From: a virus
DNA: 64,000 nt
Virus record (IMG/VR): IMGVR_UViG_3300027704_003324
Coordinates: 1 to 64,000 of that record
Strand: one strand, 5' to 3'
Shown here in pieces: positions 848 through 60,533 of this stretch. Position 1 is the first letter of the stretch, and each line of letters starts with the position of its first letter. Under the pieces are notes generated by a model. That model saw nothing but the letters and a program-made list of their open reading frames with translations. It was not told the origin of the DNA and made no database searches. The position numbers and the translations under genes were made by a program.

Positions 848-1561
848 TTATCCAAATATTTCTACTCTAATATCTTTCATCATTTCAAATCCTAGCTTAT
901 CTAAGTGAAACCTTCCTTCAGAAACCATTCTATCCCAACCACAGAAGTAAACTAATGGTTTATCATCCATCACATGAATATCATTAAGGTAATGCTCATG
1001 GACGTGTCCTTTTTTATATCCTAGTTTTTTCTCTTGAGACAGTACAGGAATATATTCAAAGTTAGGCATTTGTTTAGCTAAGAATTCAAACTCTTTTCTA
1101 TATAATATATCTTTATGAGTTCGAGTACCGAAGAATAGTTTAATGCTCTTAAATTTTATATCATTATCATATAAGTAATTGACCATTGAACGAAAAGGAC
1201 TTACTCCTGATCCAGTAGATACAAACATAATATCTCTATTCATAATGTCTTGAGGTAGTGTAAATATTCCCATAGGACCTCTATAAAGAAATTCGTCTCC
1301 TATCTCTGCTTCCAAGAATAAGTAATTAGACATATGACCTCCTTCAAGATAAGTTATAACTAGTTCGAAGTTATTACTACCGTCCGGCCATGAAGCAATG
1401 GAATAGTTTCTAACAACTGAGCCATCTGCTCCAGGCTTAGCAACTAACTGTAACAATTGCCCGGGTACATATTCTAGTTTCTCATACAAAGGTGATTCAA
1501 ATATGAACCTCCAGTTCTTATCTGTCTCTTTTATAATCTTAGTTAAGATTGCTACATTCAT
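848..1561 (-). CDS. FAD-binding ferredoxin/flavodoxin-NAD(P)+ reductase family oxidoreductase
   Basis: RNYSIAS FAD motif, GxMSNYL, GPMG.F, STGSGVSPF NAD-binding loop, YFCG, C-terminal E.F. Confidence 0.9.
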   Translation of the reverse strand: MNVAILTKIIKETDKNWRFIFESPLYEKLEYVPGQLLQLVAKPGADGSVVRNYSIASWPDGSNNFELVITYLEGGHMSNYLFLEAEIGDEFLYRGPMGIFTLPQDIMNRDIMFVSTGSGVSPFRSMVNYLYDNDIKFKSIKLFFGTRTHKDILYRKEFEFLAKQMPNFEYIPVLSQEKKLGYKKGHVHEHYLNDIHVMDDKPLVYFCGWDRMVSEGRFHLDKLGFEMMKDIRVEIFG

Positions 1562-1562
1562 A

Positions 1563-1766
1563 TTAGTAATCGTTTTTAAATATCTCTTTCAAGAAATTAT
1601 AAACAAATATAGACAGTGATAAAGGCCATAATACTATATGGTATACTCTTTCATTATTAGTCCAAGGTTGACCTAATCTTCCTTCTAAGTTATTAGTAGT
1701 CCATGTCTCTAAAGCCATAGAGTATATTACTCCTATAATAAAATAAGTTGCTATTGCTAAAATCAT
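1563..1766 (-). CDS. small membrane protein
   Basis: two hydrophobic segments, LWP motif. Confidence 0.6.
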   Translation of the reverse strand: MILAIATYFIIGVIYSMALETWTTNNLEGRLGQPWTNNERVYHIVLWPLSLSIFVYNFLKEIFKNDY

Positions 1767-1768
1767 AT

Positions 1769-1927
1769 TTATTCTTTTTTAAAAGCACGAAACGTACAAG
1801 CATTCCTTCCATTAATAAGAGGCATACCATGTGTATCGTATGTTATTGAGTCTACTTTAACTTTCTTATTCTTAAACCTTCCAGTTAAAATATAGTCTCC
1901 TGTTTTTATTCCTTGTAATTTAACCAT
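1769..1927 (-). CDS. small hypothetical protein (52 aa, MVKLQGIKTGDYILTGRFKNKK...)
   Basis: translated by hand; fills the gap and is coupled to its neighbours. Confidence 0.6.
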   Translation of the reverse strand: MVKLQGIKTGDYILTGRFKNKKVKVDSITYDTHGMPLINGRNACTFRAFKKE

Positions 1928-2720
1928 TCTTAATAGCTTTAGTTATGTGTTTAGCAAACTTATGACCACCTGCCCATCCCCAATGTCCATCTTTAATCTT
2001 ACCTTTTGTCTCTTCTTCAATACTTGAGAAGTCTCCTACTATCTCTACTAAATTCCAAATATGACATTTAATACCTTTTGTTTCTAGGTAATCAGTAACT
2101 AATTTAACTCTTAATGTATCTTCCACTTTAATTAAGTTGTTATTAGGTACTTTATAGTTACGATTAAAGTTAAGCATAGCTATAGATAAATCCTCTGTCT
2201 CTCTACCGTATAATTCAGTTAGCCTATGTTTAAATCTATCTGGGGGATAGATGTTTTCAAAGTTATTACTAATAGTCTGGCAGTAAGTAGGTCTGGTTAT
2301 ATCTCCGTTTATGTTTACCGGTTCTAAGCTTTCTCTAGTAGCTTTATCTACTATGAAATCAGTACGTTCTGTCCAGCCGATTGAATAGAGAATTGTATCT
2401 CCTTCTTTAAACTTATCTAAATCAGCTAAAAACTTCATAAATACTATATTATTAGATAGTCCACCTATTCCCCTATTTACTACGTTAGCATTAAGATTTT
2501 TACCAACTATATCTACCCAGAATTTAAACTTAAGAGGGTTAGGAACATCTATTTGGGTTTTACCATCGTCTTTAACTAATGGTACTCGAGTTCCATCTCC
2601 AGCTGTAAAGCTATCTCCGTATGTATATAATTTAATCATCGGTCTCTTCTTTATACTCATACCATGAAGGGTTAGGTAGTTCTGAATAGTGATCCCATAA
2701 ACCTCTTTTAACGATTTCAC
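1920..2720 (-). CDS. SGNH/GDSL hydrolase-like protein (true start probably near 2639-2660)
   Basis: YGDSFTAG block I, NRGIGG block II, DGHW block V. Confidence 0.75.
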   Translation of the reverse strand: MKSLKEVYGITIQNYLTLHGMSIKKRPMIKLYTYGDSFTAGDGTRVPLVKDDGKTQIDVPNPLKFKFWVDIVGKNLNANVVNRGIGGLSNNIVFMKFLADLDKFKEGDTILYSIGWTERTDFIVDKATRESLEPVNINGDITRPTYCQTISNNFENIYPPDRFKHRLTELYGRETEDLSIAMLNFNRNYKVPNNNLIKVEDTLRVKLVTDYLETKGIKCHIWNLVEIVGDFSSIEEETKGKIKDGHWGWAGGHKFAKHITKAIKNG

Positions 2721-2729
2721 TTTCTTTAC

Positions 2730-3095
2730 CTATTTCCATAGAACCTGAATTGCTACTAGTATGAAACATAATGATAAACTTACAACTGTTTTAGTATTTA
2801 TTCCTTCACTAAAGTGATGGTTAAGTAGTATTGCGTATAGTATCATACCTATACTAAATCCTATGAACCTTGCTGGCCATAGTAGTCCATCCATTCCGGC
2901 AACTGTATACTTAGTTCCGTAAATATAGAAATAAGATAATCCTATACCTGCAGCAGCTACTAGGAACTCATTCTTTCTGAACCAATCTGTGGTCTTTAAA
3001 AACTGACCATTTAATTGGTAGAATGTTATAAAATGAGCTCCTAGAAAAAATAGTATACCTATTGCTAAACTTTTACCGTTTACCATACTATGCAT
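2730..3095 (-). CDS. 4-TM membrane protein (DMT/SMR-like size)
   Basis: four hydrophobic helices in about 118 aa. Confidence 0.65.
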   Translation of the reverse strand: MHSMVNGKSLAIGILFFLGAHFITFYQLNGQFLKTTDWFRKNEFLVAAAGIGLSYFYIYGTKYTVAGMDGLLWPARFIGFSIGMILYAILLNHHFSEGINTKTVVSLSLCFILVAIQVLWK

Positions 3096-3285
3096 ATATT
3101 ACTAACTTAGTATTAGATTCAGTACTTAATAGAGTACGCTTTTTAGCTCTCCCAACTGGTCTCTTACTTAATTGTTCATACTGATACCCATCCATCATGA
3201 TGTGCATTCCTGGCATTACTAACTCTTGAATTCTAGCGTTGATTCTTGTTGCTTTAACAAAGAACATTTGTGTTGGTTTTTCCAT
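3088..3285 (-). CDS. hypothetical protein
   Basis: ORF preceded by class-I motif at 3313-3345. Confidence 0.6.
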   Translation of the reverse strand: MEKPTQMFFVKATRINARIQELVMPGMHIMMDGYQYEQLSKRPVGRAKKRTLLSTESNTKLVIYA

Positions 3286-3330
3286 AACTTTTATTTTTAT
3301 TATTTATTTCTATAAAGATACGAAATATTA

Positions 3331-3732
3331 TTATCGTATCAAACTGTCTGCTATTAATTGTTTAAACTTTGTTGTAGACCAACCGTGACTTCTATCTAAA
3401 TAATGAATAGGAACCTTTAAATTATCTCCCGTAAATGGTTTGTTTATGTAGTCATCTCCTAAGAATCTAACATCAAACTCACCCATTTTAATAAGGTCTA
3501 AGAGCTGCTCTTCGTATGTATAACGTACTACGTCATTAACATATTTCAATGAAAGCAACATATCTTTACGTTCTTCTACGCTAAGGATAGGCTTTAACTT
3601 AGATGGTCTTTCTATGGAAGGATCGGTATGAAGTAACACAACTAAGCAATCACACTTTGTTCTCATCTCTTTAAACATTGCTATGTAGCCTGGATGTATT
3701 ACATCAAAATTACCTGCTATAACTCCTTTCAT
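3331..3732 (-). CDS. cytidylyltransferase-like protein (TagD/RfaE domain II family)
   Basis: GNFDVIHPGY (HxGH-like), K.KPI.S.EER, GDDY, STT; start reassigned to MKGVIAG. Confidence 0.85.
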   Translation of the reverse strand: MKGVIAGNFDVIHPGYIAMFKEMRTKCDCLVVLLHTDPSIERPSKLKPILSVEERKDMLLSLKYVNDVVRYTYEEQLLDLIKMGEFDVRFLGDDYINKPFTGDNLKVPIHYLDRSHGWSTTKFKQLIADSLIR

Positions 3733-16167: not shown

Positions 16168-16855
16168 ATATATCTTTTGATAATGGAAAATACTTCTTAC
16201 TAAGCTCAGTACCTAAATTATAATCTAATCCTTCTCCTAAGTTCCTAAGTCTATTATTATCTTCTAAAGAAGCTAAAACTGTATAGGCATCTACAAATAC
16301 ATTTACAAACGAATGAATTGAATCATTCCAATCTCTTCTAGTATCAGTATCTTTTAATCCTACTCTACCTGAGAATGCATGAGCATTACTAAATTCTTTA
16401 TTGAATCCATCAAATCCTACAAAATTAACTTTACGAGCTCTTGTTGCTTGCATAGCTAATAGTATCATTCTAAATGTAGCTCCTGATTTTTGAGCTGGAT
16501 TATACTGAACTTCACCTAAGTCTATATTCATTGCAAGAATAGGAGTATCTATATACTCTTTGAATGCTATGAACTCATCTGATTTTTCTTTATTGTTCCT
16601 AAAATGCTCTGGTTCGTAATATACGAATGGTTTATCTGCCTTTAGCTTATCCATTAATACCTTACTAGTTATATCAGTTTCATAACCTAATTGGTATAGG
16701 TCTATCTTCTTTGACAATACCTTATCATTCTTATAGAAATCATTACAGGTCCAAAGGAAATCATAATCTAACTTATCCCAATTTCTGTCTAAAGTAGATG
16801 TTCCTCCACCTACTATTAAAATTGATTTACCTATATAGTCTTTTCTAAAATCCAT
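16151..16855 (-). CDS. GT42/Maf-like putative sialyltransferase
   Basis: ILIVGGGTS, TCNDFY, KSGA, FVGFDG; resembles the Cst-II/Maf fold. Confidence 0.6.
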   Translation of the reverse strand: MDFRKDYIGKSILIVGGGTSTLDRNWDKLDYDFLWTCNDFYKNDKVLSKKIDLYQLGYETDITSKVLMDKLKADKPFVYYEPEHFRNNKEKSDEFIAFKEYIDTPILAMNIDLGEVQYNPAQKSGATFRMILLAMQATRARKVNFVGFDGFNKEFSNAHAFSGRVGLKDTDTRRDWNDSIHSFVNVFVDAYTVLASLEDNNRLRNLGEGLDYNLGTELSKKYFPLSKDIYETIR

Positions 16856-19090: not shown

Positions 19091-19116
19091 ATATACAATA
19101 TACGAACTTTAATTGG

Positions 19117-32098: not shown

Positions 32099-32134
32099 AT
32101 ACCTTAATATACGAAAGTTTATTTAAGTAAGCAA

Positions 32135-40005: not shown

Positions 40006-40073
40006 ATAACTTTATTTGTTAATTATTAATATACGATTAATTTATAAAAGAAACAACCCTAGAGCGGGTTAAT

Positions 40074-42969: not shown

Positions 42970-43515
42970 TTATTTAATAATATACGAAAAATTATTCAGA
43001 ATAAAAAATTCTTGAACAGCTTTTTTTCCGTCTTTTATATTTAACTTGTCTTGGTACATTTTTTCTATTGTATCCAATCTTGGAGTATAATCTACTTCTA
43101 TATCATCGTCCATTTGCGTAATTTTATCATCAAATGCTCTAGTATAAATTTCAAATTCTCCTCCAAACTCTTTTAAGAATTCATGCATTGCTGGAGCTAG
43201 CCATCCTGTATTGGCTCCTGATCCTTGTAAGTAGTTTCTTCCTATTCTCTGGTAAAGTTTCTGTGTACATCCTATTTTAAAATGTTGCTGTTTTCCGTCA
43301 GGAGCTTTATACACAAGGTCATAAATTGCTCTTTGCATAGGAAAGTCTGTTGGGACCATAGTAATATGATCTTTAGTATCTCTTCTGACTTTTAGTTTAA
43401 GGAAATACTTGTATCTATTTACTTCTGTAATATGCTCTGTTAGAGCTCTTTTGCTTTGTTCTAGTTCTCTCGGCAAAACAAATGAGTCTAGGTACTCAAA
43501 ATTCTTTGGAATCAT
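42970..43515 (-). CDS. GIY-YIG-like endonuclease
   Basis: AIYDL...FKIGCT..L..RI..Y, distal Glu (IEK); promoter at 43543-43575. Confidence 0.55.
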   Translation of the reverse strand: MIPKNFEYLDSFVLPRELEQSKRALTEHITEVNRYKYFLKLKVRRDTKDHITMVPTDFPMQRAIYDLVYKAPDGKQQHFKIGCTQKLYQRIGRNYLQGSGANTGWLAPAMHEFLKEFGGEFEIYTRAFDDKITQMDDDIEVDYTPRLDTIEKMYQDKLNIKDGKKAVQEFFILNNFSYIIK

Positions 43516-47050: not shown

Positions 47051-47672
47051 TTAATGTTGTTGATTTAATTCTAATATTTTCTATCTGTATAGGTTTTATA
47101 CCTCTAAGTTTAAAACTCAAACCTAATGCAAGACCTGGTCCATTACCTTTACCGCTAAAACTATTATCTTCAGATCCTATTTCAATCCATAGTTTTTCAG
47201 CTAAAGTTAAGTCTAAAACTATACCCTTAAGATACGAATTATAAGGCAGTATTCCAACTTGTTCTAGTACTGGTGTTACTTCAGTTGGGTCTACTCCTAA
47301 AGATTCCATATACTTTACTGCTTTGCTCCAGTATGCCTTTGTATACCAAGATCCTTTCCAACCACTTTGTACATAAAAATTATCGTCTGGTGGTATATGT
47401 GATGCTTTTACAGCATCTTTAAGTTTATCAGCGTCTGCATAAATAACTTGTTGTTTAATACATTGTGATATGAATATTGGCCAATAGTACTGTTCGAAAT
47501 AATTAAAAACTCCTTTGTTTGTCGGAGCCATATTAAAGATATTATAACCCTCTACTTCTATGTGAACATCGGTTTGAAGATATATAGTTGACTTCTTATC
47601 AATATATTTTATATTATTTAAAAAATCTTTTCTATGTTCATCTCCTATTGCTATGATACAATAATTAGCCAT
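47043..47672 (-). CDS. hypothetical protein with GT-A-like DxD motif
   Basis: start reassigned to MANYCIIAIG; VIYADAD; lies between dpdA and dpdN. Confidence 0.5.
   Translation of the reverse strand: MANYCIIAIGDEHRKDFLNNIKYIDKKSTIYLQTDVHIEVEGYNIFNMAPTNKGVFNYFEQYYWPIFISQCIKQQVIYADADKLKDAVKASHIPPDDNFYVQSGWKGSWYTKAYWSKAVKYMESLGVDPTEVTPVLEQVGILPYNSYLKGIVLDLTLAEKLWIEIGSEDNSFSGKGNGPGLALGLSFKLRGIKPIQIENIRIKSTTLNE
47227..47259 (-). promoter_or_regulatory. internal class-I promoter upstream of dpdN
   Basis: AGTTG-N16-TTCGTATCTTAA inside the coding sequence, exact spacing. Confidence 0.6.
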
Positions 47673-48462
47673 TTGTAAACCATTTAAATTTTTGTATATT
47701 ATTTTTAATAGTATCCAACTGCTCAATTGTGAGCTCTGAGTTAATTAGTTCATGAAGTTTCTGACGCTCTTTAGACCATAGTCCATCGGTTCCGTATGTA
47801 ATTCCTTTAATTCCATGTACTACAGGATTTGAAGTATCTAATGAGTAGATCCAATCATAGTCAGAATGCTTATAAAAACTAAACTCTTGAGGAAGTCCAC
47901 ATCCTAATAAGTGATGAGGCTTATCTTTATTAATTACCCCGTCTTTAAGTAAGTCTCCTAGTAGCTTAACACGTCCTAGCATCCAACTAACGTACTTGTT
48001 AGCATGAGGAAAAGAATCGGTGTAATACGAATAATCAAAAGAGATAGCAATCATATCTACATTAGCTATTTCATCCATAGCTTTGTAACATTCTCTGATT
48101 TGCTTATAATTTTTACCTTGAACAACCCCTATACTTTTACCAGGGACATCACTATGGTTTTTAGTCCAATTTGCAGCTTGTTGCATAGTCTTATGAGCAT
48201 CTTCTAAAGCATCCGGAATAATATACCAAGTAGGTCTTATTTCTTTAACCCAATATGCAAATTTATGTGCATCAAACGCTTCTTCTAATTCAAAGATAGA
48301 GTTATCTAAAATAACCTCTCTACCACTAGCTATTGCTTTCTTAAATTGTTCCAAATAAATTGGATCCTCTTCAAAGAGGTGCACTAAGGCATAATCGTAA
48401 TCAGTTAAATACTGTACTTCATCAAAAATACTCTTCGGACTTTCGTGTGCTATTTTAATCAT
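47665..48462 (-). CDS. dpdA: TGT-like DNA 7-deazaguanine transglycosylase (DpdA, probably DpdA3 type)
   Basis: ILDNSIFE, IIPD, GVVQG, HHLLG, SLDTS TIM-barrel motifs; que gene context. Confidence 0.8.
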   Translation of the reverse strand: MIKIAHESPKSIFDEVQYLTDYDYALVHLFEEDPIYLEQFKKAIASGREVILDNSIFELEEAFDAHKFAYWVKEIRPTWYIIPDALEDAHKTMQQAANWTKNHSDVPGKSIGVVQGKNYKQIRECYKAMDEIANVDMIAISFDYSYYTDSFPHANKYVSWMLGRVKLLGDLLKDGVINKDKPHHLLGCGLPQEFSFYKHSDYDWIYSLDTSNPVVHGIKGITYGTDGLWSKERQKLHELINSELTIEQLDTIKNNIQKFKWFTNG

Positions 48463-48643
48463 TTATTTCTGTTCTAAAACCTTTATCTAAATTAACCAAT
48501 GACTTTTGTACCATATTTACTACCTCATCTAATTTTAAAGTAACTAAATCAATGGCTGCAGTTGCAGTATCAAGAGGTATATACTTTACTCCCTCTATCT
48601 CTTTTACATCTTTCAGTAGATCTATTTGCTTATCTTTACTCAT
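48455..48643 (-). CDS. hypothetical protein
   Basis: coupled ORF. Confidence 0.6.
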   Translation of the reverse strand: MSKDKQIDLLKDVKEIEGVKYIPLDTATAAIDLVTLKLDEVVNMVQKSLVNLDKGFRTEIND

Positions 48644-49227
48644 TATATTCCTATTGATTCGTTTCTAAATTTAGCTAATTCATCATCAGAGAAGAATTGA
48701 TGTAAGTCTGGTCTGAAGTAATTAGTTGCTTTCATTACTTTTCGGTCTCTAGATCGATAGACAATATACCGTCCTTCCTTAACCTTCTCAAAATGGCAGG
48801 CCTCACCTTGCTCCGTACTTCTTTGGCTGACGGCCTGTATGGCTTCTTCTTCAGTAGTACAAGCTTTTGACATATTGCTTGCTTGTACTTCTGCATATGC
48901 GGGCCGTATCTTATCCTTAAGGCCATGTAGCATAACACCGTTCCCAAGGGAAACATAAGTAATGTCGCACAAAGCGTCCAGAACTTCCACAATGTCTCCG
49001 TTTTCGCAAGCGACTCTATATTCTTCAAGTTCTTCGAGTATGAAGTCGTAAACGAATTGCCACTCTTTCTTAGCTGGTATAGTAGGTTCATAATTATTTG
49101 GTTTATTAAAAGTATCGTTAAAAATCTCTACTTCATCTACGAAAGGAACTGGGTTGATAGTAACCTTACCATCCGCCTCACTCCAGTTTCCAGCTTTTTC
49201 AGGAAATAATTTTAATTGCTCACTCAT
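48643..49227 (-). CDS. MazG-like (PRA-PH/DR2231-type) NTP pyrophosphohydrolase
   Basis: ILEELEEY, EVLDALCDITYV, V..SNMSK, KV.K. Confidence 0.85.
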   Translation of the reverse strand: MSEQLKLFPEKAGNWSEADGKVTINPVPFVDEVEIFNDTFNKPNNYEPTIPAKKEWQFVYDFILEELEEYRVACENGDIVEVLDALCDITYVSLGNGVMLHGLKDKIRPAYAEVQASNMSKACTTEEEAIQAVSQRSTEQGEACHFEKVKEGRYIVYRSRDRKVMKATNYFRPDLHQFFSDDELAKFRNESIGI

Positions 49228-49228
49228 C

Positions 49229-49432
49229 TTAATATACTTTAATAATTCTAGATTCTGTTAAGCTAATAATTTTAAAGTTAGTCTCACTAAGCTCTTCTAA
49301 CATTTTATATGTTTTAGCTTCAGCTTCTGTTCCTGTCATAGCATCTACTAAGTATACTTCTTTTACTTTTTGAATTCTACCATTATCGTTTTCTCTTTCA
49401 AACTGGGTAGTTACTTGCCAATAATTTGTCAT
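49229..49432 (-). CDS. DUF4494-like protein (Bacteroidota family)
   Basis: ENDNG..QKVKEVYLVDAM...EAEA. Confidence 0.7.
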   Translation of the reverse strand: MTNYWQVTTQFERENDNGRIQKVKEVYLVDAMTGTEAEAKTYKMLEELSETNFKIISLTESRIIKVY

Positions 49433-49439
49433 ATCTCTT

Positions 49440-49967
49440 TTATTTATTTAATTTATTAGTATTTTCTTTAGGCATTGTTAAACCTCCTATAAGGTTTATG
49501 TCATCTCTTTCGTCCTGTCTTTCATCTGGTTCGTTTGCTAAAAGCTCATTAGCCATTTCTATCCACTCCGGTAGGTCTACTTGTTCTTTATCTAAGACCT
49601 CTTGCATAGTTCCGATCCATTCATCTTCTCTTTTATAATCATCTTCTAATCGTACTATATCATCTTCTCCGAAGTAGGTACCAGTCTGTACTTCTATAAA
49701 TCTTACTGGTTTATCTGTTTCATTCCAAGCTCTATGTTTAGCTCCTAATGGTATTTTAATAGATTCTCCTGCTTTTCTAAATACTTTCTCATCATCAAGT
49801 ATAATAGTTAGTTCACCGTAGATAACAGTCCACTGCTCTTTACGTTTCGTGTGGTACTGGTAAGAGAGTCTTTGTCCGGGTTCAACTTCTATAATCTTAA
49901 CTTTAGCTTCTGAGGTATCATGTAATACTTCATATGCACCCCAAGGTCTATATTCTAATGACGACAT
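49440..49967 (-). CDS. type II mannose-6-phosphate isomerase cupin
   Basis: RPWG.Y, V.PGQRLSYQYH..R.E.W, IEVQTG.Y.GEDDIVRLEDDY.R. Confidence 0.9.
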   Translation of the reverse strand: MSSLEYRPWGAYEVLHDTSEAKVKIIEVEPGQRLSYQYHTKRKEQWTVIYGELTIILDDEKVFRKAGESIKIPLGAKHRAWNETDKPVRFIEVQTGTYFGEDDIVRLEDDYKREDEWIGTMQEVLDKEQVDLPEWIEMANELLANEPDERQDERDDINLIGGLTMPKENTNKLNK

Positions 49968-50668
49968 ATGCTTGCTAATTCTATATTCTTATAAAACTCT
50001 GCTTTTGCAGAATCCTCATTTAAAAATGCTCCTGTTAACTTAGCAGTCTGCATTGAAGCTCCTTGATGCTTCACTCCTCTACAACTTACACAATTATGTG
50101 TTGCAGATATCATAACTGCTACTCCTAAATTACCTTCACATATCTTATTAACAGCATTATGAATAGCAACTGTTAATTGTTCTTGAATAGCACCTCTTCT
50201 TCCGAATTGCTCTACTATTCTATTTAATTTAGATAAGCCGACAACCTTCCCGGTCTCTGAAGCTATATAAGCTATGCTCACTTGTCCACCAATATTTTGG
50301 TGGTGGTGGGAGCACATAGACGTAACTGGAATATTAGATTCTTGTACGATTCCGTCGTAGCCGTCGCTAGGGAATGCCGTAATTCTGTCTAATGGCTCAT
50401 ATCGGCCCTTCCATAAATCGTTAACGTATGCTTTCGCTACTCTACGGGGAGTCTCAGAAGAGTTCGGATCATTTTTCCAATCCGTACCAAGAGCAGTCAA
50501 GAAGTCTCCAAATGCTTTTTCAGCATTATTAATGATAACTTCCTTCTCTTCTGATGTTAATCTAGCCTCAGGTCCGTCGGTTGCCTGCTTATCTGCTAGT
50601 TGAATGGATATACCGTTTGCATATCCAGCTTTTACTAATTCTGTTCCTTCTATAAACTTCTTTGCCAT
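49955..50668 (-). CDS. folE: GTP cyclohydrolase I
   Basis: TPRRVAK, SMCSHH, GLSKLNR, IQEQLT, HNCVSCRGV; start reassigned to MAKKFIEG. Confidence 0.95.
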   Translation of the reverse strand: MAKKFIEGTELVKAGYANGISIQLADKQATDGPEARLTSEEKEVIINNAEKAFGDFLTALGTDWKNDPNSSETPRRVAKAYVNDLWKGRYEPLDRITAFPSDGYDGIVQESNIPVTSMCSHHHQNIGGQVSIAYIASETGKVVGLSKLNRIVEQFGRRGAIQEQLTVAIHNAVNKICEGNLGVAVMISATHNCVSCRGVKHQGASMQTAKLTGAFLNEDSAKAEFYKNIELASICRH

Positions 50669-50678
50669 TTTCTCTTTA

Positions 50679-50705
50679 CTTGTTTTGTAGTGGTGCTTCA
50701 ACACT
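50679..50705 (-). ncRNA. preQ1-I-like riboswitch aptamer (folE leader)
   Basis: AGUG-UUGAAGCAC-CACU-ACAAAACAAG, between the promoter (50716-50748) and the folE start. Confidence 0.65.
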
Positions 50706-50734
50706 TATTAATACTTTAATATACGATTTTATTT

Positions 50735-51142
50735 TCATTTAACCAAATAATCTTGTATAGGATTTGAATTATCTTTTTCCCATGGATAAACTATCCACCC
50801 ATAATCATCTGCTATTTCTTGTGCATAGTACTCTGGTTTTGCTACTGATGTTGTCTTATAGTGAAGAGTAGCAAATTTAGGGTTAAACATAGTACCTCTT
50901 AAATCAAAGATTGTTTTACCGCTATCTGCTATATCATCTATAATCAATAGCTTAGGATAGTGGTTACTTGTGTACTGCATATAAGGTACTTCAAACCTAT
51001 GTGAGTACATTATTGCTAAAATGGTGCCTCCTCTTGGTATTCCAGTAACGTAGTCTATACTACCTTTACATTGTTCGTGTACTTTATCTAATAGTTCATA
51101 GACATCATCCCAAGTTAAGAATATTTTTTTTATTTCTCCCAT
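50735..51142 (-). CDS. type I purine phosphoribosyltransferase (Gpt-like)
   Basis: GIPRGG, LLIIDDIADSGKT, WIVYPWE; start probably MGEIKK. Confidence 0.9.
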   Translation of the reverse strand: MGEIKKIFLTWDDVYELLDKVHEQCKGSIDYVTGIPRGGTILAIMYSHRFEVPYMQYTSNHYPKLLIIDDIADSGKTIFDLRGTMFNPKFATLHYKTTSVAKPEYYAQEIADDYGWIVYPWEKDNSNPIQDYLVK

Positions 51143-51270
51143 GTTGTTGTTGTTGTCCATATCGTAGGATCTATTACGTAGTTAAGTTCTTTCTCAAAGT
51201 TTAATTCTCTTACTTTTTTGCCTAATTCTTGATCATTAGGTGTGTCGTGTATTATTTGTTTAAGGTTCAT
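51130..51270 (-). CDS. small hypothetical protein (46 aa, [11 protein letters not shown] motif)
   Basis: translated by hand; overlaps both neighbours slightly. Confidence 0.45.
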
Positions 51271-51571
51271 ATTTTAATCCAAAAAATTTATAATTATTTA
51301 TAACTGCTTCTTTTTCTCCGTCGGCGATTGCATCTTCTTCTGTTTCGTATATTGCGTCTACTGGGCATTCTGGTATACAGGCTCCACAATCAATACATTC
51401 GTCTGGGTTGATATAAAGGCTTTTGCCTATTAGTTGTGATTTGGTCATTTCTGCAACTTCTGCTCCTGCTCCTGTTATATCTATAGGACCATGTATACAG
51501 TCTACAGGGCAAACTGTTACGCAAGCTGTATCGCAGGTACTAATGCACGGACTTCCTATTATATAACTCAT
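51260..51571 (-). CDS. dicluster 4Fe-4S ferredoxin
   Basis: C...CD.ACV.VCPVDCI and [13 protein letters not shown]. Confidence 0.92.
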
Positions 51572-52350
51572 TATACTTCTCTTTGATCTTCAAATGCAAT
51601 GATATGGGGTCTCCAAGTCATTCTATACCCATTATCTCTAACCCAATCAAACAATACAGGGTAAGACTTAAATAGAGATTCTCTTGAGTCTCCTGCAGGC
51701 ATAAACCATACTTTATCTTGAGGTGCTTCTAAAGTATCTATACATTCCATTATTTCTTTTAATGCTGCTTTATCTTTACCATCCCATACCGGCTTTAAGT
51801 GGTAGTTAGAATGGTATGCAATACTTTTTTTCATTGCTTCATAATTAAGTCTAAACTTATTATGTTGTTTAATCATCCTTTCATCAGTAATCTTACCTTG
51901 TGGTGTTGCCACTCCAAGTACAGGTACCGAGTTAGAGAATTTGGGACTGATAGAAAGCAAATTGATAGGATAATCCGTAGGTAGAAAATGACTACCTTCG
52001 TTCTCCATAGTAATAAAAATATCTTTTTCATTAGCAAAATGTGTTAATTCATTAACTAGTTTTCCATGCATTGAAGGTGATCCTCCAGTAAGCATCATTT
52101 CTTTAATATGAGGATTCTTCTCATATGCTTTAATTATATCATTAAAGTTATATTGACCTTTATCTGGATGAATAGATGTATACCAGCTATCACACCAGCC
52201 TCCTTCTCCAAAATAACATCTATGAGTACATCCTGTAGTTCTAATCACTACCGTTGGATAACCTGCTCTACTACCTTCTGACTGTACCGCTGTATATATT
52301 TCTACAATCGGTAAATTTTTATCGTAATCTTCTACTCTACCTAGGGACAT
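51571..52350 (-). CDS. queE: 7-carboxy-7-deazaguanine synthase (radical SAM)
   Basis: QSEG..AG.P, RTTGC...C........CDS, LTGG.P, SISPK. Confidence 0.92.
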
Positions 52351-52804
52351 ATATTGCTGAGTTTTTACCGTGTTCTCTAAATTCTACTTTTATAACTTTT
52401 ACTCTACCTTCAGTTTCCGTTTCTATGAATGGAGCTAACTTTTCGTATATATACTGTGAGAACTTCTCTGCTCCTGTAGCAGGTACTACTCTAACCTGTG
52501 CTATACCTATTTGATTAAGCCTCATTGCTTCAGGTAGAAATGGATCGTCTTCTGCTATTAAGTAGGTATGGTCAAACATATGATCCATCCATACTTTTGG
52601 AGACATTCCATCTATTAAGGTCTTAGCTCTTTTCATTCCTCCGAAATCCCATACCCAGTTTCTTTCATCTAAATCTCCTTCAAACCATAGTTTAAAAGAT
52701 ACTCCATAACCGTGTAGAAATCTACAATGAGTAGTTTCGGCTTTCCATTGTCGAAAGACTGTACTGAATCCATCGAATACTTTTGTTGATTGATATTTTG
52801 CCAT
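52337..52804 (-). CDS. queD: 6-carboxytetrahydropterin synthase
   Basis: HCRFLHGY, WVWDFG, FDH, AE, VEFREH. Confidence 0.9.
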   Translation of the reverse strand: MAKYQSTKVFDGFSTVFRQWKAETTHCRFLHGYGVSFKLWFEGDLDERNWVWDFGGMKRAKTLIDGMSPKVWMDHMFDHTYLIAEDDPFLPEAMRLNQIGIAQVRVVPATGAEKFSQYIYEKLAPFIETETEGRVKVIKVEFREHGKNSAIYVPR

Positions 52805-52812
52805 AATATAAT

Positions 52813-53064
52813 TTAAACTAATTCTTCCCCAATTCCAACTAATTCAGCTAAAAATAATAAAATAAAGCCTAACTCAAATAATCCGAAGAATCCAAAAGCA
52901 CATGCTCCTAGTCGAATTGCGGATTTAATAAAAGATATTTTTTGGTGTAAACTAGGATCGGGTATTTTTTGACCGTTGATCTCTAATGACGGTTTCATAA
53001 CTACTTGCCCTCGATCGTCTCTGTAATAAAGATCATCGTTCAATTTCTCTTGTAACTTTTTCAT
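52813..53064 (-). CDS. small membrane protein leading the queD operon
   Basis: C-terminal hydrophobic hairpin ending AELVGIGEELV. Confidence 0.65.
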   Translation of the reverse strand: MKKLQEKLNDDLYYRDDRGQVVMKPSLEINGQKIPDPSLHQKISFIKSAIRLGACAFGFFGLFELGFILLFLAELVGIGEELV

Positions 53065-53066
53065 TT

Positions 53067-53094
53067 CGTGTTTTTAAAGTGGTACTGTGACACT
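53067..53094 (-). ncRNA. preQ1-I-like riboswitch aptamer (queD/queE operon leader)
   Basis: AGUG-UCACAGUAC-CACU-UUAAAAACACG followed by AA-AUG; promoter at 53111-53143. Confidence 0.7.
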
Positions 53095-53120
53095 ATCGCC
53101 TTATATTAATACAATATACG

Positions 53121-53152
53121 AAAAAAGGAGATAGTAACCAACTATCCCCCCT
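53121..53152 (-). terminator. intrinsic terminator overlapping the next promoter
   Basis: minus strand GGGGATAGT-TGGTT-ACTATCTCC-TTTTTT; contains the AGTTG -33 box. Confidence 0.7.
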
Positions 53153-53171
53153 TAATCTTCTGTATTTTATT

Positions 53172-54845
53172 TTATAAAGCTGCTATAGATGCTGTAAATG
53201 CATTATAGCTTGGAGCTGCTGCAACTAAATTCTTTAAAGCTGTTATGCTTATATAATTAGCAGATAGTGCATAAGAGCCTGTAGCTGCGTTAAGAGCACT
53301 AACTGATGGTAAGCTAGTAGTTAAAGCGTATGAACCTGTGGCTGAGTTAAGAGCTGTTAGGTCTACGTTAGTTAATACTGTTGAACCTGATAATAGTAAA
53401 GATCCTGTAACGTTTAAAGTTGTTGCAACGTTTACTTTTTTATTGAATAGCCATCTCTTATTAGATCTAACATATCCATCTTTTCGTGCTTCAAGTACTA
53501 CATCAGTTCCTCCTAATGACCCTGTTCCACCTCCTGTAAGTTGCATAGCAGGTTGTGTAGAGCCTGAGATAGCATACGAAGTTATAGAGATACCTGCATT
53601 TGGACCTGTCTTATCTGAAATGGTATAACCAGCGTAACGTTGTACTGATCCACTTTCTGTATCTAAGTAAGTCTGTACTCCAATTGAATTCCCTGGCTCT
53701 GCATAGGAGTTAATAGAAAAGTATCCTGAACCAGATATTGTCTGGTTACCTGTAAATGAATTACCTCCAGTTAAAGTAGCATGTGAACTAGTAGCTGCAT
53801 TTAAAGCAGTTACATCTGGTATATTACTTGCTAAAGCATACGAGCTTGTAGTTGCATTTAAAGCAGTTACATCTGGTATATTACTTGCTAAAGCATACGA
53901 GCTTGTAGCTGAGTTTATACTACTAACTGCTGTAGCTACTTGTGCATCTGTAGCAAAGGTAGCATCTAATGACCCTGTAAATGTATTAAGTGCTGTTAGA
54001 TCTGCGTTAGTTAATACTGTTGAACCTGATAATAATAGAGATCCTGTAACGTTTAGTACTCCTGTAACATTTACTTTCTTATTGAATATCCATCTCTTAT
54101 TAGATCTAACGTATCCATCTTTTTGAGCCTGAAGAATTACTGTTGTACCTCCTAATGACCCTGTTCCCCCTCCTGTAAGTTGCATAGCAGGCTGTGTAGA
54201 GCCTGATATAACATATGAATTAATCGAAATACCTGCATTTGGACCTGTCTTATCTGAAATGGTGTAGCCAGCGTAACGTTGTGCTGATCCGCTTTCTGTA
54301 TCTAAGTAGGTCTGTACTCCAATTGAATTTCCTGGCTCTGCATAGGAATTAATAGAGAAGTATCCAGATCCTGATATTGTTTGGTTTCCTGTAAATGAAT
54401 TCCCTCCAGCTAAAGTAGCATGTGAACTAGTAGCTGCATTTAAAGCAACAACTGCATTTGCTAATTGTGCATCAGTCGCATATGTAGCATCTAATGAACC
54501 TGTAAATGAATGTAAATTTTGTATGTGGCTATTTGCTGTTGCAATATTAGAATCAATAGACCCTGTTTTTGTATTTAAAGAACTTACTGCTGTTGATACT
54601 TGAGCATCAGTCGCATATGTTGCATCCAGAGAAGCACTAAATTGATCTAGCTTCTGTATAGCTGCAGTTACGTTTGAATATCCTTCAATACCTAATGAAC
54701 CGGTAACACTAAGGCTACCTGTAACTTTCAAAGCTCCAATAGATCCAGATACTAGTTTTCCTAGTCCATCTTGAAATTGAGCATTGTCAACTTGTACCAA
54801 TCGCTGGTACGTCTTGTTTATCTTCTTGCTTGTGAAATTTGCCAT
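53172..54845 (-). CDS. S/T/G/A-rich repetitive fibre-like (putative virion) protein
   Basis: TGSL/SGS repeats, coiled-coil repeats, duplicated ~150-aa module; class-II motif at 54862-54869. Confidence 0.65.
   Translation of the reverse strand: MANFTSKKINKTYQRLVQVDNAQFQDGLGKLVSGSIGALKVTGSLSVTGSLGIEGYSNVTAAIQKLDQFSASLDATYATDAQVSTAVSSLNTKTGSIDSNIATANSHIQNLHSFTGSLDATYATDAQLANAVVALNAATSSHATLAGGNSFTGNQTISGSGYFSINSYAEPGNSIGVQTYLDTESGSAQRYAGYTISDKTGPNAGISINSYVISGSTQPAMQLTGGGTGSLGGTTVILQAQKDGYVRSNKRWIFNKKVNVTGVLNVTGSLLLSGSTVLTNADLTALNTFTGSLDATFATDAQVATAVSSINSATSSYALASNIPDVTALNATTSSYALASNIPDVTALNAATSSHATLTGGNSFTGNQTISGSGYFSINSYAEPGNSIGVQTYLDTESGSVQRYAGYTISDKTGPNAGISITSYAISGSTQPAMQLTGGGTGSLGGTDVVLEARKDGYVRSNKRWLFNKKVNVATTLNVTGSLLLSGSTVLTNVDLTALNSATGSYALTTSLPSVSALNAATGSYALSANYISITALKNLVAAAPSYNAFTASIAAL
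53346..54447. repeat. intragenic direct duplication (about 460 bp, offset 639 bp)
   Basis: 53346-53808 aligns with 53985-54447 (anchors 53367/54006 and 53785/54424). Confidence 0.85.
53796..53908. repeat. 57-bp period tandem repeat (19 aa)
   Basis: identical 56-mers at 53796-53851 and 53853-53908. Confidence 0.9.
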
Positions 54846-58844: not shown

Positions 58845-59660
58845 TTAATCTCTTCCTTTAATAACGGCTGAATTATGGTCTGAAAGTATAAGCTCTACAT
58901 GCGTTTTCGCAACGTTGTATTCAACTTCTCCACTTTCATCCTCATATTGTACAGGGTCATCCACACCCAACATGATAAATGCTTCAATTCTTTCAACAGA
59001 TGATGCTGATTTATAGTCGCTATTACCGCTAGGATAAGGCTTATAGGAAGTATTAGTACGTTTGTACACTTCATTAAAATCAATTCCCAACTCTTTAACC
59101 AGTTTCTGTCCATCTTTTAATATTCCAAATTTGTCTGTATCTAAGTAAGGAGTAAAATACCCTACTCTTTCTGCATCCCAATTCCCTTCTCGAAATGCTA
59201 AATCATCCGCGTCTCTAAACTCTTGTCTACAGTCCGGATATACTGCATGATCACCTGCGTGAATACCTAAAGCAATATCACAGGTCTCTTCTGCTTTATT
59301 AGCTACTGATAATGCTACAGCTTGTGTAATAGAAGCAAATATCTTATTCCTATTAGGTACTACTGTTTCTTTCATATTATCATTCTCATAATGTCCTTCA
59401 GGTACATCATCTCCTCCTTCAACTAATGCTGAATCTAGAAGGCTTGCAAGTCCGTCTAGTTTAATTTGACGATAATTAACTCTATGACCATTATCAGCTA
59501 GATAATTAATTAAAGATTGAGCCTTTTCTAACTCTACTCTATGCTTTTGACCATAATCAAATGAAATACCAGTTACGGTATCGTACTCTTTTAATGCTCT
59601 TAATAATAATGTGGAACTATCCATTCCACCACTTAATGATACTACTACATGCTTTGCCAT
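58845..59660 (-). CDS. queC: 7-cyano-7-deazaguanine synthase
   Basis: SLSGGMDS, FDYGQKH, VVPNRN, YPDCR.EF, S..ER..AF; the usual C-terminal Zn cysteines are replaced (SYKP...SASS). Confidence 0.93.
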   Translation of the reverse strand: MAKHVVVSLSGGMDSSTLLLRALKEYDTVTGISFDYGQKHRVELEKAQSLINYLADNGHRVNYRQIKLDGLASLLDSALVEGGDDVPEGHYENDNMKETVVPNRNKIFASITQAVALSVANKAEETCDIALGIHAGDHAVYPDCRQEFRDADDLAFREGNWDAERVGYFTPYLDTDKFGILKDGQKLVKELGIDFNEVYKRTNTSYKPYPSGNSDYKSASSVERIEAFIMLGVDDPVQYEDESGEVEYNVAKTHVELILSDHNSAVIKGRD

Positions 59661-60500: not shown

Positions 60501-60533
60501 ACAATATACGAACTATAAGGGGTAAAAGCAACT
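60501..60533 (-). promoter_or_regulatory. class-I promoter
   Basis: AGTTG-N16-TTCGTATATTGT. Confidence 0.7.

Follow-up and report, generated by a model that had tools for sequence, protein, structure and literature searches.

Introduction

Riboswitches of the preQ1-I class are told apart by the two nucleotides directly before the 3' strand of helix P1: 'AC' is the rule for types II and III, and 'UC', which goes with a two-ligand pocket, for type I (PMC11625349). In the solved T. tengcongensis aptamer, G5, C16, U6, G11, C15 and A29 contact preQ1 or stack on it, as described in PMC8222354. Riboswitches have been reported as rare in phage genomes, and the accessible part of the survey lists only the c-di-GMP-I riboswitches of C. 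difficile prophages and the glutamine riboswitches of cyanophages (PMC5473149, McCown et al. 2017).

We found no published phage preQ1 riboswitch in the literature, where the 2014 class alignments (McCown et al.) may already include kin from phages, the environment or Thalassospira/Vibrio. The same holds for work linking a riboswitch to phage 7-deazaguanine DNA modification or pairing DpdA with a riboswitch. The word 'riboswitch' is absent from the accessible text of the preprint on Flavobacterium phage immuto, a cultured relative of the phage described here that has fdPreQ1 in place of G (bioRxiv 10.1101/2023.04.13.536721), and the word 'phage' is absent from that of the 2024 preQ1 review (PMC11625349).

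Results

A hairpin-and-tail element precedes folE

The window (the whole 64,000-nt stretch of viral DNA analysed here, part of a 139,240-bp record) carries AGUG-UUGAAGCAC-CACU-ACAAAACAAG on its minus strand at 50705-50679 (27 nt, read directly from the sequence), letter for letter as in the original prediction. Its 3' end lies 10 nt from the folE start, as had also been claimed, with the spacer at 50678-50669 and the ATG at 50668-50666. The tail may resemble that of the T. tengcongensis aptamer, to which it had been likened. The element and its flanks are laid out as follows.

50744..50747, minus strand: TTTG, candidate -33 box of a promoter of the Bacteroidota type, with 20 nt between it and TATATTAA
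50716..50725, minus strand: CGTATATTAA, candidate -7 box or phage promoter motif; 10 nt separate it from P1
50702..50705, minus strand: P1 5' strand AGUG (sequence, P1 covariation); contains the GTG mis-called as folE start
50693..50701, minus strand: 9-nt loop UUGAAGCAC (sequence and alignment of 48 distinct copies)
50689..50692, minus strand: P1 3' strand CACU (sequence, covariation)
50679..50688, minus strand: whole tail ACAAAACAAG (sequence)
50683..50688, minus strand: A-rich L3 tail ACAAAA (A run invariant in the alignment)
50679..50682, minus strand: CAAG, predicted 3' strand of the pseudoknot helix P2 (loop/tail pairing counts)
50666..50678, minus strand: A-rich 10-nt spacer UAAAGAGAAA and folE start ATG at 50668-50666 (sequence, related leaders)
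53067..53094, minus strand: sister aptamer (class A), AGUG-UCACAGUAC-CACU-UUAAAAAC-ACG (sequence, pattern, covariance model)

Mapped from described aptamers (PMC8222354, PMC11625349), loop position U1 would form L1, G6 would belong to P2 and to the pocket ceiling, and A8-C9 would be the 'AC' ahead of the P1 3' strand. The cytosine predicted to pair with the ligand is C50693, with its counterpart in the sister copy at 53082, and the last A of L3 (50683) is the putative counterpart of the ligand-contacting A29 (PMC8222354). In the predicted P2, C50682 would pair with loop G50696, and G50679 faces loop A50698 in a non-standard pair.

The sister aptamer is separated from an ATG at 53064 by a gap of 2 nt. 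The genome-wide scan proposed along with the original prediction, run with a degenerate pattern that allowed up to two mismatches, matched at 50705-50679 and 53094-53067 only in the whole 139,240-bp record (control: zero matches). The family covariance model, whose training set included both window copies, also recovered just these two sites over the record, scoring 41.2 bits for the sister and 33.0 bits for the folE copy, with 13.9 bits for the next best candidate. In this record, the motif is thus confined to the leaders of two operons, as had been supposed.

The folE-type and sister-type versions are paralogous; loop position 7, P1 and the distance to the AUG (10 and 2 nt here) set them apart.

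Downstream genes of a 7-deazaguanine pathway

The genes behind the two elements are:

49955..50668, minus strand: folE (GTP cyclohydrolase I), 237 aa, first gene under the putative control (PF01227, 148.9 bits)
47665..49967, minus strand: tightly packed genes downstream of folE (ORF layout, profile searches), namely the following three
49440..49967, minus strand: cupin, followed by a 67-aa ORF
48643..49227, minus strand: MazG-like gene, followed by a 62-aa ORF
47665..48462, minus strand: DpdA-like gene (TGT superfamily at 17.4 bits only; synteny with phage immuto DpdA)
50735..53064, minus strand: operon of the sister aptamer, with an 83-aa membrane ORF, queD, queE, a ferredoxin and a phosphoribosyltransferase

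Judged from gene packing, folE and the cupin, MazG-like and dpdA genes are probably co-transcribed as one operon. Altogether, the phage encodes the full pathway, comprising FolE, QueD, QueE, QueC, QueF, a DpdA-like protein and a PurN-like formyltransferase.

The original prediction had moved the folE start from 50704 to 50668, and the leaders of homologues agree with this: in 51 of 53 distinct homologous folE leaders, an in-frame stop lies at most 45 nt upstream and no alternative start is available. The GTG at 50704 lies inside P1 and is present solely in the lineage of the window.

P1 covaries and the pocket positions are invariant

We picked 81 related phage folE loci by FolE protein homology alone, and 57 of them carry the element in the folE leader. 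All four P1 pairs form in 56 of the 57 copies and three of four in the remaining one, with six complementary versions of the helix (UGAG/CUCA 22, GGAG/CUCC 20, AGUG/CACU 5, UGUG/CACA 4, GGUG/CACC 4 and UAAG/CUUA 1). No leader aptamer is present at the other 24 loci, which indicates that the control is dispensable. The motif regex gave 98 matches in the 81 related loci and the window, all on the gene strand, compared with 0-4 in 20 mononucleotide shuffles.

Within the alignment of 48 distinct copies, 191 of 192 P1 cells are paired; this value of 99.5% is partly circular, because 47 of the 48 rows came from a regex that demanded pairing, and the unbiased counts are those of the 57/81 leader survey and of the viral-contig scan. 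Slid-register controls resulted in 29-62% pairing. Two-sided changes were observed in three of the four P1 pairs (37 cells), a level reached by 0 of 500 shuffles.

The pattern scan of viral contigs, which did not demand P1 pairing, returned 92 matches at 80 loci among the matches listed. Within this list, a pathway gene begins less than 150 nt downstream of 60 of the 68 matches in which P1 is complete (FolE 28, small ORF plus QueD/E 28, QueD 2, QueE 2), and of 1 of the 24 in which it is not. Likewise among the matches listed, the element occurs in well over a hundred viral contigs (>100). The loop variant of the folE copy, UUGAAGCAC, is rare: of 80 pattern matches inspected, 2 lie in folE leaders, and the variant is limited to two contig lineages.

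Eight positions of the loop, the closing pair and the tail do not vary among the 48 distinct copies: the closing G-C, loop U1, A5, G6, A8 and C9, and the A preceding the tail C. In the folE copy, they include C50693, U50701, the pair G50702-C50692, G50696 and A50683. Six of the invariant positions correspond to G5, C16, U6, G11, C15 and A29 of the solved T. tengcongensis aptamer (PMC8222354).

Bacterial relatives and detection by Rfam

The commonest loop of the family, UCGUAGCAC, is that of phage class A and of some folE-type copies, not of the window's own copies. Together with the tail and a P1 of CCUG/CAGG, the same loop is found ahead of queC at 10 loci of Thalassospira and ahead of queD at 6 of Vibrio or Marinomonas; Pfam, run on one ORF each, scored 205 bits for QueC and 110.8 bits for PTPS (queD). 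The family model R1 gave 28.7 bits for the Thalassospira site. Its whole-genome search scored 150 of 1149-3460 candidates per genome and missed known Vibrio and Marinomonas sites, and R1 was not used for surveys. Taken together, the conserved position, the covariation of P1, the invariant pocket and the queC/queD context in Proteobacteria indicate that the element is preQ1-I-like and not a chance hairpin, as originally proposed.

In Flavobacteriaceae, a loose pattern matched 92 of 401 sampled genomes, and the backwards control often matched too. No que-linked aptamer was found among the 30 Flavobacteriaceae loci read (about 75 further matches were seen as strings only). One recurrent match in this family is coding sequence, by eye the end of rplB.

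The Rfam model RF00522 (PreQ1) scored the folE copy at 12.4 bits against a gathering cut-off of 39 (E 2.4 in a 121-nt search), had no match to the sister copy at E<=10 and listed neither of the two when the whole record was scanned. Since the bacterial copies linked to queC and queD escape this model too, its failure is one of coverage. At gathering cut-offs, Rfam reported tRNA only for the whole window. PreQ1 was not matched in an E-value scan of 2.8 kb, and short slices of the sister copy and of a class A consensus copy yielded only weak DUF805-RNA matches of 12-13 bits. For Streptococcus phage Dp-1, RF00522 gave no match, and no riboswitch is annotated in its first 12 kb.

Pseudoknot pairing and folding energies

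Loop G6 and the tail C of P2 never vary in the 48 copies, and this pair is therefore uninformative. The second P2 pair (loop position 4 with tail +3) forms in 35 of 48 copies, and in all seven copies that carry a C at this pair, a G stands opposite. The folE copy of the window is among the 13 non-pairing ones, with an A opposite G.

In the nearest-neighbour fold of the folE copy, P1 is absent and a competing GUGU-UGAA-GCAC hairpin forms instead (-2.4 kcal/mol, z-score +1.22). Folding z-scores between +1.22 and -0.18 give no thermodynamic support, as one would expect when a helix of 4 bp closes a loop of 9 nt, and were used neither for nor against the element.

Promoter-like boxes and RNA contigs

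Upstream of the folE copy, TTTG (50747-50744) is followed after 20 nt by TATATTAA (50723-50716). The motif CGTATATTR occurs 9 times in the window, 8 times on the gene strand, and one of the occurrences lies 17 nt upstream of the sister aptamer (53112-53120). The TATATT box is kept in most related leaders. Loose forms of the promoter motif show no enrichment relative to shuffles (41 vs 35 expected; 39 vs 40.5). Of the promoter claimed at 50716-50748, the motif is accordingly present and the enrichment of its loose forms is not. A sigma-70 scan, which does not cover Bacteroidota promoters, gave promoter-like sites at a level not above shuffles. By eye, TTTG can be read at the equal relative place in many related leaders.

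A terminator scan found none in 49800-53400 and hence none between aptamer and AUG. The region is covered by four metatranscriptome runs from 2 studies, and an exact 707-nt RNA-library contig (50234-50940) spans the folE leader into the upstream gene, with DNA carry-over possible in both cases. Two contigs of one study end at 53089 and 53093 near the sister aptamer and those of the other study continue, although contigs cannot show transcript ends or regulation.

Discussion

A probable translational switch on DNA-modification genes

We consider it likely that the element is a compact preQ1-I aptamer ('AC' before P1, a 4-bp P1 and a 9-nt loop) that acts as a translational OFF switch on phage genes for 7-deazaguanine (fdPreQ1-type) DNA modification, in a host lineage without Shine-Dalgarno (SD) use. 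The carrier is a marine relative of Flavobacterium phage immuto, and the mRNA probably starts a few nucleotides upstream of P1. When free preQ1 (or preQ0) builds up, it would pair with C50693 and stack between the closing G50702-C50692 and G50696. The A-rich tail would then dock along P1, and the C50682-G50696 pair would close an H-type pseudoknot of ~27 nt, 10 nt before the folE AUG.

Bacteroidetes mRNAs are described as lacking SD sequences, with initiation tuned by mRNA structure (PMC6847099). Since Bacteroidia ribosomes ignore the SD and need an initiation region that is A-rich and open, fewer 30S subunits would load on folE once the knot has folded, and probably fewer on the cupin, MazG-like and dpdA genes coupled to it. 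For the operon of the small ORF, queD and queE, the sister aptamer would have the same effect. Acting together, both aptamers would provide end-product feedback on the GTP-consuming pathway to the 7-deazaguanine of the phage DNA, and the element probably lets the phage throttle the making of the modified base for its own DNA.

A bolder version of this model is conceivable but doubtful. Here, the family would be a distinct minimal preQ1-I subtype (~27-30 nt, 4-bp P1, 2-nt L2) and hold the first known riboswitches to control DNA base hypermodification, which would work by SD-free knotting of the A-rich Bacteroidia initiation region. The paralogues, with possibly different thresholds or ligands (preQ0, preQ1, formyl-preQ1), would shut down the early (folE) and the later (queD/queE) steps in stages during infection.

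Alternative explanations

It is unlikely, on our assessment, that the same fold senses another free 7-deazaguanine tuned to the end product of the phage, be it preQ0, 7-carboxy-7-deazaguanine or, if a DpdN-like enzyme acts on the free base, formylated preQ1. This idea draws on the pathway ending in a DNA base (fdPreQ1 in immuto) and not in tRNA queuosine (bioRxiv 10.1101/2023.04.13.536721), and on the solved type II aptamers, which exceed the element by one nt in L2 and by one bp in P1, so that the pocket ceiling could differ. In addition, preQ0 is bound well by type II and discriminated against by type III (PMC10622847), which indicates that C7 specificity varies within the class. However, every residue that reads the guanine-like face is invariant, as is the closing G, which touches the aminomethyl group through its O6, and the commonest loop of the family stands before queC and queD in bacteria making ordinary queuosine. 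Moreover, the phage encodes QueF (preQ0 to preQ1), which implies that preQ1 is made.

The folE copy of the window could also be a decaying or re-purposed relic that binds no ligand and at most forms the GUGU-UGAA-GCAC 5' hairpin, affecting mRNA stability or basal translation, with the sister copy as the sole working switch. Three loop positions are not those of the majority folE type, the second pair of P2 is A/G, the alternative hairpin is the predicted minimum-energy fold, the loop variant is limited to two contig lineages (80 pattern matches), and some relatives (24/81) have lost the folE aptamer outright. Against this, the three changes all fall outside the invariant positions, and every pocket residue is in place. 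In the second lineage that carries this loop (L040), the outer P1 pair, which lies outside the alternative hairpin, has changed in a compensatory way from A-U to G-C, and a competing hairpin in the apo state is normal for switches. We regard a relic as quite improbable.

Very improbable is an operator recognised by a protein or the ribosome (e.g. by a phage translational repressor), or a promoter or 5' UTR signal of a phage gene class, with no small-molecule sensing. The element always lies 10-20 nt after the conserved TATATT box, and its hairpin is tiny and thermodynamically weak, as such a signal might be. Yet other CGTATATTR boxes in the window have no element behind them, and the element is tied to que genes only. 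Loop and tail also recur before queC and queD in Alpha- and Gammaproteobacteria with unrelated promoters, and the invariant positions are those of the ligand pocket of a solved riboswitch.

Finally, a transcription-attenuating riboswitch in the style of the B. subtilis queC leader has hardly any chance of being correct: transcriptional members exist in the class (PMC10639078) and further hairpins are seen by eye behind the Vibrio and Marinomonas copies, but the gap between aptamer and AUG is only 10 nt (folE) or 2 nt (sister), and there are no terminator-like sites in 49800-53400.

Implications of the proposed translational switch

If the element binds preQ1, these phages would regulate an anti-restriction DNA-modification pathway via metabolite feedback, using a natural aptamer that marks the lower end of its class in size. 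It would also allow a test of how a riboswitch controls translation in Bacteroidia, which do not depend on the SD, and would reveal that the Rfam PreQ1 model has a gap, into which bacterial queC and queD leaders fall as well. Flavobacterium phage immuto, which carries a majority folE-type copy (L001 8351-8390), and its host are a cultured system for testing.

Comparison with known riboswitches

At the level of the preQ1-I class, the element combines a covarying P1, the pocket residues and a place in leaders of 7-deazaguanine synthesis genes; its RF00522 score stays below 39 bits, with a model that is rather insensitive to this subtype. The two nucleotides ahead of the 3' strand of P1 are the 'AC' of type II in all 48 copies and the 'UC' of type I in none. 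As in type II (T. tengcongensis, B. subtilis), a hairpin is joined to an A-rich tail that might close an H-type pseudoknot, the loop begins with U, and the closing G-C, the loop G facing the tail C and the preceding A are shared (PMC8222354, PMC11625349). Common to both are also the leaders of 7-deazaguanine biosynthesis genes and a 3' end that borders on the initiation region, which is also the arrangement of the translational Tte switch. In contrast to the 5-bp P1 of type II (PMC10639078), the phage element has 4 bp, and only 2 nt (L2) lie between loop G and specificity C in its 9-nt loop, whereas the L2 of type II is longer. Unlike type II, it is phage-encoded, missed by RF00522 and linked to genes for DNA base replacement rather than for tRNA queuosine. 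SD sequestration cannot be the mechanism here, because the presumed host does without SD usage.

Type III (E. coli yhhQ leader) resembles the element in its very small size and short L2, and in that 'UU' follows the 5' strand of P1 and 'AC' precedes the 3' strand (PMC10622847, PMC11625349); the folE copy of the window shows the same UU...AC. By our reading of the numbering, the closing pair G5-C15 of the Eco structure also leaves a 9-nt loop. Type III itself is described there as having a pyrimidine-rich stem-loop, three conserved P1 G-C pairs and an AAGG SD buried in P2, as almost confined to Pseudomonadota and as regulating the yhhQ transporter. The phage loop is purine-rich (UUGAAGCAC or UCGUAGAAC), P1 holds two G-C pairs here and a variable number elsewhere, and the context is folE or queD in phages, so that only UU...AC and the 9-nt loop size agree.

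The aptamers of Thalassospira, Vibrio and Marinomonas share the UU/UA-AAAAAC-A tail and the 4-bp P1 with the phage family, but their P1 is CCUG/CAGG and they belong to chromosomal genes of ordinary queuosine synthesis; the gammaproteobacterial copies have an additional expression platform between aptamer and AUG. The c-di-GMP-I and glutamine riboswitches of phages are likewise metabolite-sensing RNAs carried by a phage, although they represent other classes with other ligands.

The folE leader and its sister copy

The folE leader carries the AGUG/CACU element of the original prediction, 10 nt ahead of the folE ATG at 50668 (minus strand). Its four parts, the sister copy (class A) and queC are:

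50705-50702 (-), P1 (hairpin stem) 5' strand, AGUG
50701-50693 (-), folE-copy loop, UUGAAGCAC
50692-50689 (-), P1 3' strand, CACU
50688-50679 (-), folE-copy tail, ACAAAACAAG
53094-53067 (-), sister copy, AGUG-UCACAGUAC-CACU-UUAAAAAC-ACG
58974-59648, QueC

The ORF behind the folE copy encodes a GTP cyclohydrolase I (PF01227, 148.9 bits), with which the genes downstream of folE are presumably co-transcribed. Between the sister copy and the ATG (53064) of an 83-aa ORF lie 2 nt; queD, queE, ferredoxin and phosphoribosyltransferase genes follow this ORF. This small ORF (52813-53064, minus strand) had no Pfam or NCBIfam match; its relatives (62-107 aa) share a conserved hydrophobic C-terminal half with the end EELV and stand first in the queD/queE operon of most related phages (28 of 92 pattern matches, among the matches listed).

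Besides QueC, the IMG/VR record (139,240 bp, completeness estimate 84%) encodes QueF, a PurN-like formyltransferase and a DpdA-like protein with a weak TGT-superfamily match. Its nearest cultured relative, Flavobacterium phage vB_FspM_immuto, has the same gene order, and a preprint reports that G in immuto DNA is replaced by 7-(formylamino)methyl-7-deazaguanine (bioRxiv 10.1101/2023.04.13.536721).

Leader comparison supports translation of folE from 50668 and argues, as proposed, against the longer start at 50704. Of 53 distinct homologous leaders, 51 have an in-frame stop no more than 45 nt ahead of the conserved ATG and lack any alternative start in the interval; the upstream GTG (-36) and TTG (-33) occur only in the window's lineage. 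The GTG at 50704 is itself part of P1.

Distribution of the element

Searching the whole record with a degenerate pattern (up to two mismatches) returned the folE copy and the sister copy only, with no control match, so that the motif indeed stands only before the two operons. R1, a covariance model built from the element family with both window sites in its training set, also recovered only these sites (41.2 and 33.0 bits; next best 13.9).

Two checks were unbiased, a count of leaders chosen by FolE homology and a pattern-only viral scan. For the former, we read the folE leaders of 80 viral loci (at least 80 exist, among the matches listed) and of immuto. The motif was present in 57/81 loci, with P1 pairing at 4/4 positions in 56 and 3/4 in one, and absent from the folE leader in 24; a second, upstream copy (class A) lay within the fetched flank in 39/81. 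A motif regex applied to the 81 loci and the window gave 98 matches, every one on the gene strand (shuffles: 0-4), and 97 directly precede an ATG as read from the printed flanks. The pattern-only scan, in which P1 pairing was not demanded, gave 92 matches in 80 fetched loci. Among these listed matches, 68 have a full P1 and 24 do not; 60 of the 68 (FolE 28, small ORF with QueD/E 28, QueD 2, QueE 2), and 1 of the 24, lie less than 150 nt upstream of pathway genes.

Looser patterns repeatedly hit conserved coding sequence in six Flavobacteriaceae loci (L341, L344, L349, L355, L365, L366), by eye the 3' end of the ribosomal protein L2 gene, a trap when a small motif is searched by pattern alone.

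Stem, predicted pocket and predicted pseudoknot

Viral folE leaders use six complementary forms of P1 (UGAG/CUCA, GGAG/CUCC, AGUG/CACU, UGUG/CACA, GGUG/CACC and UAAG/CUUA). In A1, our alignment of 48 distinct copies, 191 of 192 P1 cells pair and both sides change in three of the four pairs; the percentage is partly circular because 47 rows were chosen by a pairing-demanding regex. None of 500 shuffles reached the observed values, and slid controls pair at 29-62%.

Eight positions are invariant in all 48 copies: both bases of the closing G-C pair, U1, A5 and G6 of the loop, the 'AC' directly 5' of the P1 3' strand, and the A preceding the tail C. Six of them correspond to positions that contact or stack on preQ1 in the Thermoanaerobacter tengcongensis aptamer, where the ligand pairs with C15, is recognised by A29 and U6, contacts G5 O6 and is stacked between G5-C16 and G11 (PMC8222354). 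For the predicted pseudoknot helix P2, the loop G and tail C are constant (48/48) and hence uninformative on pairing. Loop position 4 and tail +3, which would make up the next pair, are complementary in 35/48 copies, and a G stands opposite in all seven copies with a loop C at position 4; the window's folE copy has A opposite G.

Relative to UCGUAGAAC, the majority folE-type loop, the loop of the window's folE copy (UUGAAGCAC) has changes at positions 2, 4 and 7, each of them variable across the family. Scanning for exactly the folE-copy loop found 89 stretches, with 80 matches in fetched loci, two of them in folE leaders, on contigs L004 (98% FolE identity) and L040 (80%). In L040, GGUG/CACC replaces AGUG/CACU, a compensatory change of the outer P1 pair. 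For the window's folE leader, the fold of lowest energy is another 4-bp hairpin, GUGU-UGAA-GCAC (50693-50704, minus strand; -2.4 kcal/mol), which leaves the outer pair unused and competes with P1 by occupying its 5' strand and the specificity C. That this hairpin marks decay of the folE copy seems quite improbable to us; it could instead be the ligand-free state. The L040 copy can form the same hairpin.

Taken together, the leader element is genuine, conserved and structured. Its kept leader position, covarying P1 and invariant pocket bear out the preQ1-I-like assignment, and by sequence it is most likely a compact, phage-borne candidate preQ1-I riboswitch controlling a DNA-modification pathway.

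Possible mode of action

A terminator scan of 49800-53400 listed none. By eye, the region has a single terminator-like hairpin, which precedes the promoter motif of the sister copy and does not separate an aptamer from its gene: a G+C-rich hairpin with a U run at about 53121-53150 (minus strand), right after a 557-aa ORF, for which Rfam gave only a weak trpB-motif match (27.4 bits, cut-off 59). The gap from aptamer to AUG, 10 nt for folE and 2 nt for the sister copy, makes control at the level of translation likely. Bacteroidetes mRNAs lack a Shine-Dalgarno sequence, and structure and upstream nucleotides tune their initiation, according to PMC6847099; the switch would therefore fold the A-rich initiation region rather than hide such a sequence. 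The related cultured phage infects Flavobacterium; our host assignment is presumptive, as is the transcription start.

CGTATATTR occurs nine times in the window, eight times on the gene strand, and may be a phage promoter motif. Each aptamer follows such a box, the folE copy by 11 nt and the sister copy by 17 nt; looser forms showed no enrichment over shuffles. Examples of the sites are:

16617-16625 (-), CGTATATTR
19096-19104 (-), CGTATATTR
32105-32113 (-), CGTATATTR
40027-40035 (-), CGTATATTR
42978-42986 (-), CGTATATTR
50717-50725 (-), CGTATATTR ahead of the folE copy
53112-53120 (-), CGTATATTR ahead of the sister copy
60502-60510 (-), CGTATATTR

RNA-library contigs span the element's region. 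Over the conserved part of folE (50242-50583), contigs from two metatranscriptome runs with 5-8% differences exceed a word depth of 1000, probably from abundant relatives; elsewhere in the stretch word depth is in the tens, and contig depth is no measure of expression rank.

Comparison with known systems

With the majority loop and tail, a scan of one genome per prokaryotic species gave at least 80 loci (counts here are among the matches listed). P1 has at least 4 bp in 21 of 80, and 16 of these 21 share one conserved element, CCUG-UCGUAGCAC-CAGG-UU/UA-AAAAAC-A, a seventh P1 version, directly before queC in ten Thalassospira loci and before queD in six Vibrio or Marinomonas loci. One ORF of each kind matched Pfam (QueC, 205 bits; PTPS, 110.8 bits); no que context was found at the other five. 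The bacterial sites independently tie the majority loop to 7-deazaguanine genes. By eye, four Vibrio/Marinomonas queD leaders (L124, L133, L121, L159) have, between aptamer and AUG, a GUGCUGC segment complementary to the loop and part of the P1 3' strand, and after it another hairpin around the AUG, an arrangement that looks like a classical expression platform and is missing from the phage copies.

The Rfam PreQ1 model RF00522 scored the folE copy at 12.4 bits (cut-off 39; 121-nt search), did not match the sister copy and found neither when run over the whole record. It also gave no match at the gathering cut-off in any of the eight queC/queD-linked bacterial loci scanned (of the 16), and an 81-nt slice of one such site had none at E<=10. 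Because bacterial que-linked sites are missed too, the low score shows that the model is blind to the compact form and is no sign that the form lies outside the class. Class A copies (window 53040-53098, minus strand; L008 1750-1799) weakly match the Rfam DUF805 RNA (RF03081, 12-13 bits, cut-off 51), whose printed consensus likewise opens with a short hairpin, then UUAAAAAAC; this motif may distantly resemble the preQ1-I shape. In Streptococcus phage Dp-1 (L334 70-130), the 60-nt que operon leader shows by eye a GCAG/CUGC hairpin, whose long loop starts with UU and ends with UC, and behind it an A-rich tail into the annotated RBS; RF00522 did not match this leader, which may or may not be a preQ1-type element.

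Phage riboswitches are reported to be rare, with c-di-GMP-I and glutamine the only examples given by McCown et al. 2017 (PMC5473149). The accessible parts of a 2024 preQ1 review (PMC11625349) and of the fdPreQ1 preprint (bioRxiv 10.1101/2023.04.13.536721) mention no phages and no riboswitch, respectively. Our literature search found no paper pairing 'DpdA' with 'riboswitch', although McCown et al. 2014 or supplements may list such sequences; other searches returned nothing relevant.

In the review's scheme, type I preQ1-I aptamers have 'UC' before the P1 3' strand, type II 'AC', and type III, from Pseudomonadota, UU...AC and a pyrimidine-rich stem-loop (PMC11625349). With its 'AC', the phage element follows the type II rule. 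The Escherichia coli type III structure, termed the smallest natural aptamer, has the closing pair G5-C15 (PMC10622847), which implies a 9-nt loop, equal in size to that of the phage element. The phage element thus combines a type II sequence with type III size.
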